Assembly: GCF_028368995.1 (NCBI RefSeq)
Contig: NZ_JAQNDL010000001.1
Span: forward strand, 64,001-128,000
Length of the DNA stretch: 64,000 bases
Origin: Nannocystis bainbridge
GTDB taxonomy: Bacteria; Myxococcota_A; Polyangia; Nannocystales; Nannocystaceae
Reading direction: 5' to 3'
Shown one piece after another: positions 60,996-64,000 of this stretch (position 1 is the stretch's first letter; each line of letters begins with the position of its first letter). Position numbers and translations under genes: made by a program. The notes under the pieces are model-generated. The model saw only the letters and a program-made list of their open reading frames with translations. It did no database searches and was not told the origin of the DNA.

Positions 60996-61384
60996 CCGCA
61001 AAGATTGGCATCATCCTCGCCGGCCTCCTCGGCATGCTCGGCGTCGCCGCCGGAGCCTTCGGCGCCCACGGCCTGCGCGACCGCGTCGGCCCGCGCGAGC
61101 TCGAGATCTGGAACACCGGCGCGCACTACCAGCAGGTCCACGCCGTCGTCCTCCTGGCCGTCGCCCTGTGGGCCCTGTCCGCCTCGACCCGCGGCGAGCC
61201 GGTCGCCCTCCACGGCGTCGCCATGTCGCTGTTCGTCGCCGGCATCGCCATCTTCTCCGGCACCCTCTACGCCATCACCCTCGGCGGCCCGCGGATCCTC
61301 GGCGCCGTCACCCCGCTGGGCGGCCTGTGCCTGCTCGCCGGGTGGCTGACGATCGTCGTCCTCGGCCTGCGTCAGGTCGGGTAG
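60992..61384 (+). CDS. DUF423 (YgdD/TMEM256) membrane protein
   Basis: GAFGAHGL, YQQVHA, FSGTLY, GAVTPLGG...GW. Confidence 0.93.
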   Translation: MTAKIGIILAGLLGMLGVAAGAFGAHGLRDRVGPRELEIWNTGAHYQQVHAVVLLAVALWALSASTRGEPVALHGVAMSLFVAGIAIFSGTLYAITLGGPRILGAVTPLGGLCLLAGWLTIVVLGLRQVG

Positions 61385-61465
61385 CGGCCCGCTCGACCGG
61401 AGCCCGCCGCTTCGGCCCGCGTCTGGCAGCCGGTCGGCCTGTATCGACCTGCCGGCCGTACTTCG

Positions 61466-61543
61466 AGACATGTTCTATCGAACATGTCTCGAAGAGCATG
61501 CGCATGAAGACATGCTCTCATGCGCATGTCCCGGGGGCCATGC
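61466..61543. repeat. 14-bp-phased array at a convergent junction
   Basis: CATG at 61469,61483,61497,61511,61525,61539. Confidence 0.93.
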
Positions 61544-61589
61544 TCCTGTCACGCGCGTCGCGCCTCCGGAGCGCGCGCCGGCCCGTCGC

Positions 61590-62606
61590 TCAGTCGACCC
61601 CGCAGTAGCGCAGCGCGCAGGTCGGCGGCGCAGGCAGCTTGTACATCACGAACGGCCCGCAATTCTGCACCGCGATCGGGACCTTGAAGTGGCAGCTCTC
61701 GCCCTCCCAGTGGAAGCAGACCTCGCGCGCCACCACCCCGTCGGCGGGGCCCGGATCGGTCCCGCTGAGCCACCCGGGCGCGTGCGTCCCGCACGAGAAC
61801 TGCGGCGGCGCCGTGGTCGGCATGCGCCGCCCGGCCGAGCCGACGAAGCGCGACCACTGGCCCTCGGCCGGCAGATCCAGGTCGCACTCGACCTCCTCGA
61901 TCTGCGACGCCACGTTGCGCCCCGGCTGCGCCAGCGCGACCGCCTGCCCGCACTCGCCTGGTAGGTCCTCGGTCACGCACCCGTTGCAGCCGTCGCCGGG
62001 CGTCGCATTGCCGTCGTCGCACAGCTCGCCCTCGGCCGCCTGTAGCACGTTGTCGCCGCAGCGGGGCGCGAGCGCCGAGCAGCCGGGCGCGCAGCCCTCG
62101 TAGCTGTTGTCGTTGATCTTGTCGTCACACGCCTCGGTCCCCGCGCGGACGAAGCCGTCGCCGCAGCGCGCTTCCTTGCAGGTCGTCGGGCAGTCGTCGG
62201 TGTCCGAAGCGTTGCCGTCGTCGCACTCCTCGCCGTCCTCGATGGTCCCGTTGCCGCAGTCGGCGGGCGGCTCGGTCGTCACCGTCACCGTGAACGACGT
62301 CGGCCCGATGGTGGGGTCGGTGAACACGGTCGTGAAGGTCGGATCGATCGTCGTCGGGTCGATCGTCGTCGGGTCGATCGTCGTCGGGTCGATCGTCGTC
62401 GGGTCGATCGTCGTCTCGGTCGTCGGCGGATCGATCGTCGTCGGCAGCGTATCGGTCAGCGTATCGGTCAGCGTATCGGTGGTGATGGAGGTCGAAATGG
62501 TGTCGGTCGTATCGATCTTGATCGCGAAGCAGCCGCTCACGAGGTGCGCAAAAACAAGCCCTCGTGCCACGAGCCCCCACCGTCTACAAGCGAGTAACAT
62601 ATGCAC
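61590..62606 (-). CDS. Lipoprotein: Thr-rich stalk, Myxococcus Cys-rich repeats, C-terminal uromodulin/GP2-like D8C domain
   Basis: VSGC lipobox, TTIDP repeats, CGNG/CDDGN repeats, WSRFVG.AG.RM...CGTHAPGWL...VCFHW...C...YC. Confidence 0.82.
   Translation of the reverse strand: MHMLLACRRWGLVARGLVFAHLVSGCFAIKIDTTDTISTSITTDTLTDTLTDTLPTTIDPPTTETTIDPTTIDPTTIDPTTIDPTTIDPTFTTVFTDPTIGPTSFTVTVTTEPPADCGNGTIEDGEECDDGNASDTDDCPTTCKEARCGDGFVRAGTEACDDKINDNSYEGCAPGCSALAPRCGDNVLQAAEGELCDDGNATPGDGCNGCVTEDLPGECGQAVALAQPGRNVASQIEEVECDLDLPAEGQWSRFVGSAGRRMPTTAPPQFSCGTHAPGWLSGTDPGPADGVVAREVCFHWEGESCHFKVPIAVQNCGPFVMYKLPAPPTCALRYCGVD
62341..62442. repeat. 15-bp intragenic repeat encoding TTIDP
   Basis: GG(G/A)TCGATCGTCGTC repeated ~5-6 times. 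Confidence 0.85.
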
Positions 62607-62765
62607 TTCAAGTTACTCGTGGGCCCCGCACCCGTGCAAGGCCGAGCCCTCGATCGGGCTGGCCCGGGCCTGCGCGGCGCGATCCCGCGTGTTCGTGTGT
62701 CGCTCGCGGGTGCGGGCAATCGGCGTCAGTTGACAGCCGGCGAGCATTGCCGCATCGAGGCTCTG

Positions 62766-64000
62766 ATGACGAGGCAAACCCACCGCCCCTGGTTCGGTGC
62801 CGCGCTCGGGATTGTGTGGCTCGCGGGCTGTCCGAGCAGCCCGAACGCCAACGACACCGACGACCCGACCGCGACTGGTAACACGTCGATGACTGCGCCG
62901 TCCGGCGGGCCCACCGAGGCCACCGCGGGCGAGACCGAAGATCCGACGGCCGGCGATCCGACCGAGGACGGCGACGCCGCGGACCCTGGCCGCGTCACCG
63001 TTCACCGGCTCAACCGCACCGAGTACAACAACACCGTCCGGGACCTTCTCGGCACCGCGCAGCGGCCGGCCGACAGCTTCCCCGCCGACGACTTCGGCCT
63101 CGGCTTCGACAACATCTCCGACGTCCTCAGCCTCTCGCCGCTGCAGGCCGAGCTCTATGAGCGGGCCGCCGAGGGTCTGATCCTCGAGGCGATGGAGATC
63201 CCGATCACCGACCCGGGCACCTGGCAGATCGAGGCCGAAGACGCGCTCGCCTCGGTCGGCGGCGCCAGCGGCGAGGCCTGGAACCTCTACAGCAACGGCG
63301 AGGTGTACCAGACCATCGAGCTGCCCTACGACGGCCAGTACAAATTCAGCGCCCGCGTGTGGGGCCAGCAGGCCGGGCCCGACCTGCCGCACATGAACCT
63401 CACCGTCGACCAGGCGCCGGTGGCGATGTTCGACGTCGAGGCGGTGCAGAACGGCGCCCAGGTCTACGAGATCGAGATCGACGCCACCGCCGGCGTGCAC
63501 AAGTTCGCGGTCGAGTTCACCAACGACTTCTACGACGAGCCGAACATGGCCGACCGCAACCTGCTGGTCGACTGGTTCAAGGTCGAGGGCCCGATCAACC
63601 TGCCCGACGGCGACAACCCGCAGCGCACGCGCATCATGGTGTGCGACCCGAACGTCGACGGCGAAGAGGTCTGTCTGCGCCAGATCTTGAGCAGGTTCAC
63701 CGAGCGCGCCTGGCGACGCGCGGTCACCGGCGCCGAGCTCGACGCGCTGATGAAGTTCGTCAGCGACGCCAAGGGCGCCGGCGACACCTGGGAGTCGGGC
63801 CTGCGCATCGCCCTCCAGGCCGTCCTCGTCTCGCCGTACTTCATCTTCCGCGTCGAGCTCGACCCGGCGCCGACCGATCTCACGCCGCACCCGCTCGACG
63901 ACTTCGAGCTCGCCTCGCGCCTCTCCTACTTCCTGTGGAGCAGCATGCCCGACGACGAGCTGTTCGCCGCCGCGGCGGCCGGCAACCTCGAGGACCCGGA
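62766..64000 (+). CDS. DUF1587/DUF1595/DUF1592-type lipoprotein with inserted carbohydrate-binding-like domain (3'-truncated)
   Basis: Read manually from ATG 62766: LAGC lipobox, HRLNRTEYNNTVRDLLG, GFDN, FTNDFY...DRNL.VD, AVLVSPYFIFRVE, ELASRLSYFLWSSMPD. Confidence 0.88.
   Translation, partial: MTRQTHRPWFGAALGIVWLAGCPSSPNANDTDDPTATGNTSMTAPSGGPTEATAGETEDPTAGDPTEDGDAADPGRVTVHRLNRTEYNNTVRDLLGTAQRPADSFPADDFGLGFDNISDVLSLSPLQAELYERAAEGLILEAMEIPITDPGTWQIEAEDALASVGGASGEAWNLYSNGEVYQTIELPYDGQYKFSARVWGQQAGPDLPHMNLTVDQAPVAMFDVEAVQNGAQVYEIEIDATAGVHKFAVEFTNDFYDEPNMADRNLLVDWFKVEGPINLPDGDNPQRTRIMVCDPNVDGEEVCLRQILSRFTERAWRRAVTGAELDALMKFVSDAKGAGDTWESGLRIALQAVLVSPYFIFRVELDPAPTDLTPHPLDDFELASRLSYFLWSSMPDDELFAAAAAGNLEDP

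Follow-up and report, generated by a model that had tools for sequence, protein, structure and literature searches.

A predicted lipoprotein of Nannocystis bainbridge ends in an extracellular module that is familiar from the animal proteins uromodulin (UMOD) and glycoprotein 2 (GP2). The DNA analysed here, called the window, is a stretch of 64,000 nucleotides (NCBI RefSeq assembly GCF_028368995.1, contig NZ_JAQNDL010000001.1, positions 64,001 to 128,000), and the gene occupies 61590..62606 of its minus strand, encoding 338 residues followed by a stop codon at 61590-61592. Its residues 219-335 (61602..61952, minus strand) form a D10C domain, the module also named D8C, and by profile, sequence and predicted fold we regard its homology to the animal domain as nearly certain. 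On balance, we favour a reading in which the protein is an extracytoplasmic stalked lipoprotein bearing the D10C domain as a binding head at its distal end, the domain having been shared through one old transfer between animals and Myxococcota and then shuffled among proteins. A preliminary description of this DNA, made from the sequence alone, had proposed an animal-type UMOD/GP2/OIT3 domain on a stalked lipoprotein of a likely predatory bacterium. The host is a myxobacterium, and Nannocystis is a soil predator.

The homology is carried first by the Pfam family D8C_UMOD (PF23283), which matches residues 254-335 (61602-61847, minus strand) with E=1.2e-17 and 64.3 bits against a curated cut-off of 27, over positions 4-87 of the 88 in the profile. 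Run against the whole genome, the same profile reports the same place with 68.3 bits, and a match with such scores is far beyond chance. The domain had been placed at 61593-61955 in the preliminary description, which corresponds to residues 218-338. A phmmer search of all PDB chains retrieved GP2 and uromodulin only, as four distinct sequences (7p6r, E=2e-18 over residues 219-335; 8xc5, 2e-17; 6zs5, 8.3e-15; 6tqk, 4.1e-12). The alignment to GP2 contains two gaps, one of three residues and one of a single residue.

The predicted structure leads to the same family. An AlphaFold2 model of residues 213-338, built on a 17-sequence bacterial alignment, reached a predicted local distance difference test score (pLDDT) of 91.2 and a predicted template-modelling score (pTM) of 0.84, and agrees with the D10C fold solved for GP2, which has two 3-10 helices and nine beta-strands. 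When this model was compared to the PDB with Foldseek, 12 chains matched at E<=1e-3, all of them UMOD or GP2, and the next match lay at E ~1. The best one, the GP2 decoy module of 7p6t, superposes with a template-modelling score (TMq) of 0.87, a root-mean-square deviation (rmsd) of 1.4 A and 35% identity. Four residues (R230, D242, W251 and R253) align with GP2 R74, D86, W92 and R94, which are R185, D196, W202 and R204 in UMOD, and are invariant in 17/17 bacterial copies. The four UMOD positions are sites of kidney-disease mutations according to the accessible part of the fold paper (PMC8930769). In the ESM Atlas, the three best feature matches, scoring 0.80-0.83, are D8C clusters of eukaryotes; these fall below the 0.9 level and serve as leads only.

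The domain differs from its animal counterparts by one disulfide bond. In GP2, as given in the accessible part of the same paper (PMC8930769), the ten cysteines pair as C1(63)-C8(157), C2(85)-C9(172), C3(107)-C6(145), C4(113)-C10(177) and C5(138)-C7(146); the numbering of chain 7p6r is offset by 28 and reproduces these published positions. The Nannocystis domain holds eight of the ten canonical cysteines (C1=219, C2=241, C4=272, C5=297, C7=305, C8=316, C9=330 and C10=335), with A266 at the C3 position and S304 at that of C6. The two missing cysteines are thus the partners of one GP2 disulfide, as the preliminary description had supposed, and the four other bonds can form, with predicted pairs 219-316, 241-330, 272-335 and 297-305. 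The retrieved proteins supplied 273 nearly complete copies of the domain, which were aligned to a single profile: 146 of them have both C3 and C6, 115 have neither, 12 have C3 alone and none has C6 alone. This pattern agrees with the two being disulfide partners. The eight-cysteine pattern without C3 and C6 is found in 47/48 bacterial copies of known origin. The sole ten-cysteine copy among these 48 lies in an open reading frame (ORF) of a Myxococcales metagenome-assembled genome (MAG; L067, residues 1069-1194), where the C3-C6 pair was either kept or regained together.

Among proteins of solved structure, the closest parallel is the D10C domain of human GP2 (PDB 7P6R/7P6S/7P6T; Stsiapanava et al. 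2022, PMC8930769), with the same fold (TMq 0.86-0.87, rmsd 1.4-2.5 A, 34-36% identity), the same positions for C1, C2, C4, C5 and C7-C10, and the same core arginine, aspartate, tryptophan and arginine. Unlike GP2, the Nannocystis protein lacks the C3-C6 disulfide, the N-glycan site in the groove, a ZP module and EGF domains; it is bacterial, predicted to be lipid-anchored, and carries its D10C domain C-terminally on a stalk. Human uromodulin (PDB 7PFP, 7Q3N, 6ZS5, 9NU1-3) is similarly close, with a sequence E=8.3e-15, TMq 0.83-0.86 and 37-40% identity, and differs in its ten rather than eight cysteines, in its filament-forming ZP module and in the N275 sequon, replaced here by K323-L-P.

Upstream of the D10C domain, the protein is built as a bacterial lipoprotein might be. 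Inspection of its N-terminus reveals a predicted signal peptide at residues 1-25 (62532..62606, minus strand), with arginine residues followed by a hydrophobic stretch, and a lipobox L-V-S-G-C at residues 22-26 (62529..62543), in which Cys26 would be the lipidated residue. By these features, it looks like a lipoprotein. A stalk follows at residues 27-116 (62259..62528), delimited by composition (35 threonines, 13 aspartates, 12 prolines and 11 isoleucines among 90 residues), low pLDDT and variation among orthologs. Part of it is encoded by a tandem array of 15 nucleotides detected by Tandem Repeats Finder (62338..62444, 7.3 copies, 88% matches), which codes for pentapeptide repeats; since stalk length differs among orthologs, this array probably expands and contracts. 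In a full-length model computed with 18 orthologs the mean pLDDT is 53.5, residues 1-90 stay below 50 and a helix appears with low confidence at residues 9-22. This low pLDDT fits disorder, and the stalk is probably extended and disordered.

Between the stalk and the D10C domain lie three acidic, cysteine-rich repeats of four cysteines each (residues 117-218; 61953..62258, minus strand). The third of them forms the segment preceding C219; in UMOD and GP2 a disulfide-stapled beta-hairpin packs against D10C, and in the full-length model of the Nannocystis protein residues 199-212 stay below a pLDDT of 50, too low to judge a comparable packing. They match TIGR02232 (myxo_disulf_rpt) in NCBIfam over three stretches with E=6.2e-17 and 61.1 bits against a cut-off of 20.8, and DUF4215 in Pfam, again over three stretches, with E=1.7e-13 and 51.1 bits against a cut-off of 27. 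The whole protein has 22 cysteines, and three residues follow the D10C domain at the C-terminus. With the known myxobacterial cysteine-rich repeat proteins (TIGR02232/DUF4215) it shares the three repeats and the lipoprotein-type N-terminus; what these family names do not convey is the C-terminal D10C domain of the Nannocystis orthologs. The stalked-lipoprotein look noted in the preliminary description is reinforced by conservation, as Cys26 is invariant in 18/18 orthologs ahead of the Thr/Pro/Asp-rich stalk. So are K30 and D32, which together with Cys26 form a motif C-x-x-x-K-x-D (residues 26-32; 62511-62531, minus strand), while the surrounding stalk drifts. This post-lipobox motif may be a sorting or tethering signal.

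An artefact can be dismissed with near certainty, whether as eukaryotic contamination or as a spurious ORF, even though high-GC DNA does yield long ORFs on both strands. The coding sequence has 69% GC in a window of 72%, and its in-frame fusion to myxobacterial repeats is hard to square with such an origin. The gene order, from a PSD-family gene through the D10C gene to DUF423, RarA and FAD-oxidoreductase genes, is kept in 5/5 named Nannocystis species, complete chromosomes included. The nearest ortholog, from Nannocystis punicea, is 94% identical in the domain; orthologs at large are 48-88% identical over the whole protein, and stalks vary in length and sequence. D10C is the best-conserved part, with 87-94% identity among named species against 69-85% for whole proteins, and its ratio of nonsynonymous to synonymous substitution (dN/dS) is 0.15-0.34 in 15/15 pairs, as under purifying selection. 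Synteny and selection already refute the artefact explanation and, with the matching GC, establish that the gene is real, old and maintained, not contamination. A second D10C copy in the genome (L002, 456 residues) has the same layout with more repeats.

The other alternatives concern what the domain does. In animals, the decoy for bacterial FimH is a high-mannose N-glycan lying in the groove of D10C, as described in the accessible part of the fold paper (PMC8930769). The Nannocystis protein might work in the same way, as a glycan-displaying decoy capturing the lectins of other bacteria, and it does have the fold of the decoy module. The means of displaying a glycan were sought without success: K323 occupies the position of UMOD N275 and Q221 that of GP2 N65, no N-x-S/T sequon occurs in residues 219-338, and STT3/PglB was not found in the genome (90.5% complete) by a search that matched four archaeal controls. 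Nor does the protein contain the ZP polymerisation module or EGF domains, since Pfam finds D8C_UMOD and DUF4215 only. With no sequon, oligosaccharyltransferase or glycan-bearing asparagine found, the decoy mechanism does not carry over, and we consider a uromodulin-like decoy very improbable; the FimH analogy is the part of the preliminary description that fell. Homotypic "velcro" adhesion between D10C domains, modelled on uromodulin sheets, was rejected too, because, according to the available part of a preprint on these sheets (bioRxiv 10.1101/2025.05.09.653020), the ZP module provides the lateral contacts, D10C serves as a flexible carrier of the glycan, and sheets form without need of the branch.

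A purely structural role fares somewhat better but is doubtful. In that case D10C would have no specific ligand and would act as a spacer or a matrix or coat component, such as the rigid, protease-resistant tip of a surface fibril. The accessible literature gives no intrinsic ligand for the animal D10C, the residues conserved between bacteria and animals belong to the fold core, and collagen-like and repeat modules occur alongside the domain. It is nevertheless the most conserved part of a protein whose stalk drifts, with the low dN/dS reported above, and has been recruited repeatedly beside recognised binding modules such as SRCR. The protein might also face the periplasm, from the inner leaflet of the outer membrane or from the inner membrane, with D10C acting inside the envelope; most bacterial lipoproteins do face the periplasm. 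This location is rather improbable given the long Thr/Pro-rich stalk and an architecture shared with multi-module proteins of 1,000-1,700 residues, typical of exported surface or matrix proteins. In Myxococcus, moreover, a lysine at position +2 after the lipidated cysteine is reported to be a signal for inner-membrane retention, and the residue at +2 after Cys26 is not a lysine.

We return to the stalked lipoprotein with a distal D10C head. Lipidated Cys26 would anchor the protein, followed by a flexible Thr/Pro/Asp-rich stalk of about 90 residues, then by three myxobacterial repeats presumably closed by disulfides, and at the far end by a D10C domain of uromodulin/GP2 fold with four of the five canonical disulfides. 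D10C would be the working end, a binding or recognition head acting at the protein level, independently of any glycan, and held away from the membrane. A binding head is proposed because a conserved, disulfide-locked globule sits on a lipid-anchored stalk and has been joined repeatedly to binding modules; its placement at the cell surface or within the matrix, as a distal recognition head, is plausible but tentative. The bacterial family would derive from one old transfer between Myxococcota and an early animal lineage akin to cnidarians, after which D10C would have been shuffled among myxobacterial extracellular proteins. Going further, the bacterial copies could reveal a glycan-independent function overlooked in animals, as selection on them is purifying even though they are not N-glycosylatable, and they sit again and again at the tips of surface proteins. 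This broader proposal, with a single ancient transfer from or to a cnidarian-like animal that possibly involved SRCR and D10C as a block, is possible but on the unlikely side.

Several points weigh against the favoured reading. Uromodulin D10C is described only as a glycan-presenting scaffold, with no protein ligand, in the available part of the preprint (bioRxiv 10.1101/2025.05.09.653020). Exposure at the surface rather than towards the periplasm is a prediction, and the lipoprotein call comes from inspection of a sequence whose start codon is ambiguous (GTG at 62606 or ATG at 62600, with a start at residue 23 in one public record). An arginine lies within the hydrophobic stretch of the signal peptide, which makes this ortholog atypical, the signal peptides of the others being clearer, and the full-length model is too poor to arrange stalk, repeats and D10C relative to each other. 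On the evolutionary side, the bacterial label needs two changes in the free three-group quick tree described below; the trees contain about 125 columns and many unresolved forks, and are quick trees, the careful IQ-TREE search being unfinished. The eukaryotic sample is biased, consisting of the best matches to a bacterial query and one teleost-seeded search. Finally, since the root is not fixed, neither is the direction of transfer.

The distribution of the domain among prokaryotes is patchy and almost confined to Myxococcota. With the Pfam D8C model run on whole genomes, matches were found in 10/10 other genomes of the genus, in 4/14 genomes from other genera of the family and in 0/16 from other families of the class. 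In an even sample of the phylum, 13/401 genomes had a match, the Nannocystis bainbridge genome included, 12 of them over the cut-off; the 14 control genomes had none. When one genome from each of 185,579 species was scanned with a motif as seed, 57 loci were confirmed, a figure obtained with a single peptide pattern that would miss divergent copies elsewhere. By label, 50 of these belong to Myxococcota (Nannocystis, Enhygromyxa, Paraliomyxa, Polyangium, Sandaracinaceae and unnamed MAGs), three are unlabelled, two are assigned to Enterobacteriaceae, one to Planctomycetota and one to a "proteobacterium". The two enterobacterial loci (L051 and L078, which are G270:C128 and G270:C63) carry the NCBI label "uncultured Enterobacteriaceae", yet their genome is classified in the phylum of Nannocystis, and the label looks wrong. 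The MAG labelled Planctomycetota encodes a 339-residue protein combining MopE and D10C (L083/L086, G436:C57:20677-20913), while 0/200 other genomes of that phylum had a D10C match. This copy groups with a Myxococcota copy, L027, with a support of 92 in the Shimodaira-Hasegawa approximate likelihood ratio test (SH-aLRT); its presence there would be explained by an isolated transfer or by mis-binning of the contig.

Outside bacteria, relatives are numerous. A HMMER search of 1.84 billion cluster representatives returned 2,822 matches at E<=1e-3, 1,416 at E<=1e-10 and 82 at E<=1e-30. Among 30 that were looked up, the named ones came from Montipora (two), Acropora, Porites, Nematostella, Trichoplax and one Nannocystaceae MAG; an Oculina D8C protein and a Myxococcota SRCR protein were found by a separate search. 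A search started from a teleost sequence yielded 215 proteins at E<=1e-3, and the 120 of them listed comprise fish uromodulin, GP2, DMBT1-like, adhesion-GPCR-like and other proteins, many combining SRCR, D8C and ZP. The closest relatives by sequence are the tandem-D8C proteins of cnidarians and placozoans (Montipora XP_068722945.1, Acropora XP_074623711.1, Nematostella XP_048579921.1, Oculina, Porites and Trichoplax XP_002109332.1), at 44-50% identity to the query domain. Some of their copies share the eight-cysteine pattern without C3 and C6, while most named copies have ten cysteines; these proteins further differ in being eukaryotic and secreted, with up to 11 tandem copies and EGF or WSC partners. 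Mean identity is 43.3% between bacterial and cnidarian or placozoan copies, 31.5% between bacteria and teleosts, 35.6% between cnidarians and teleosts, and 49.1% among bacteria.

Phylogeny is compatible with a single origin of the bacterial copies. The main tree comprised copies of known origin, with unnamed metagenome proteins left out except the query, namely 48 bacterial copies (after de-duplication at 85%) and 21 cnidarian or placozoan copies (after a further de-duplication at 90% identity). In this quick maximum-likelihood tree, one branch splits the bacterial from the cnidarian and placozoan copies (SH-aLRT 89). When 20 teleost copies were added, the teleosts formed one group (support 99). 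The tree in which all bacteria were held together lies 23.4 log-likelihood (lnL) units above the free quick tree and has a p-value of 0.844 in the approximately unbiased test (p-AU), so that the test does not reject a single bacterial clade, and no better tree was obtained. Rooted on teleosts, bacteria first join three eight-cysteine copies from Porites (SH-aLRT 91), next the 15 remaining cnidarian copies (87) and last Trichoplax, a placement that is weak and based on a short alignment. A FastTree analysis of 248 copies gathers 61/71 bacterial-like tips, as designated by a heuristic composition rule, in one group with seven unnamed tips (support 0.85); the ten other bacterial-like tips fall outside, and this tree shows no single clean bacterial clade.

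From these trees, one bacterial clade stemming from a single ancient inter-domain transfer appears likely. The wide range of the domain in animals, set against its narrow range in bacteria, favours an animal-to-bacterium direction, with the opposite also possible. The alternative left by the preliminary description, inter-kingdom transfer or ancient shared ancestry, fits both the patchy bacterial distribution and the closeness to cnidarian copies. Metagenomes also contain a two-copy, eight-cysteine D10C protein of about 290 residues (P0051 and its 16-member cluster), found in many of them, with contigs reaching 97 kb and a composition that is neither high-GC bacterial nor clearly animal. This cluster may represent another lineage carrying D10C.

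The name D8C was reportedly given by Yang and colleagues in 2004. The domain family was already known, as were public Pfam matches on the orthologs: 20/20 ortholog records carry precomputed PF13948 and PF23283 matches, under the names "DUF4215 domain-containing protein" at NCBI and "cysteine-rich repeat protein" at JGI. In 2022, D10C was presented as a new fold, and the accessible part of that paper (PMC8930769) lists it only in vertebrate UMOD, GP2, OIT3/LZP and VWDE and does not mention prokaryotes. The papers retrieved on the "D8C domain" concern, by titles and the beginnings of abstracts, vertebrate uromodulin, kidney disease or ZP proteins, and no description of a bacterial D8C/D10C was found in the literature searched, subscription journals and supplementary files being outside the search. 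New are the D10C domain on a bacterial lipoprotein, its one disulfide fewer, and its lack of a glycan and of a ZP or EGF context. The preliminary description would have yielded to a domain widespread or already described in bacteria; it occurs in many Myxococcota lineages, with 57 loci and precomputed Pfam matches, but is not widespread across bacteria, and no paper describing it was found. As a whole, that description stands for the homology, the missing cysteine pair, the stalked-lipoprotein look and transfer or old ancestry, and gives way on the FimH decoy.

The D10C fold is common to animals and essentially one bacterial phylum, Myxococcota. As many UMOD kidney-disease mutations lie in it, the domain is medically relevant, and the bacterial version, without one disulfide and without glycans, offers a small and probably easy-to-express model for the fold and its core residues. 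It also suggests that the fold is selected for something besides glycan display. With SRCR, it adds a clear case of animal-type extracellular modules common to Metazoa and Myxococcota, which bears on the movement of such modules between domains of life while changing no major picture alone.

The gene diverges from a PSD-family neighbour (DUF1587, DUF1595 and DUF1592 by Pfam, plus a CBM60-like module) that occupies 62601-63998 of the plus strand and runs off the window. This neighbour is also kept in three further MAGs, and every Nannocystis locus examined has it adjoining the D10C gene; it was not found beside D10C genes elsewhere. Of its 17 occurrences among 86 D10C loci, 16 are the orthologous Nannocystis locus, with several genomes counted twice, and the last (L079) is a weak match. 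The pairing reads as synteny at the genus level and not as a general partnership, and a functional link was rejected on this ground. A scan of 61300-62900 for promoters and terminators found no promoter-like site and a single terminator-like one, which falls within the ORF at its 5' end; this is at chance level.

The other Myxococcota D10C proteins range from 339 to 1,676 residues, and all fusion partners of the bacterial domain are extracellular module types. DUF4215 alone accompanies D10C in L002, L021, L048, L056 and L065, and MopE does so in L014 and L083. D10C is combined with Dicty_CTDC repeats in L018 and L023, and in L027, where Pfam reports Dicty_CTDC, it is visible only with a self-built profile. 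A proprotein-convertase P-domain and DUF4215 are combined with it in L015, and DUF7151 with collagen repeats in L016. The Myxococcota loci with SRCR comprise L017 (2152-7179, minus strand), which adds DUF4215, and L020 (2740-6999, plus strand) and L022 (2580-6821, plus strand), which add MopE motifs. The SRCR of L017 is of true animal type, with E ~1e-30 to single domains of DMBT1, MARCO and SCARA5. The pairing of SRCR with D10C is shared by Myxococcota (L017, L020, L022 and P0196) and teleost uromodulin/GP2/DMBT1-like proteins, and could reflect block transfer or convergent shuffling. In the teleost SRCR, D8C and ZP proteins (for example of Dicentrarchus, Lates and Labrus) the pairing is the one that recurs in large Myxococcota proteins, whereas the Nannocystis protein has no SRCR and no copies lie further from the bacterial ones than those of teleosts. 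One protein of a Nannocystaceae MAG (P0031; L074:2936-4672, plus strand) is lipoprotein-like and consists of three tandem D10C copies with no other Pfam domain; by analogy, it is the bacterial counterpart of the tandem D8C arrays of corals.

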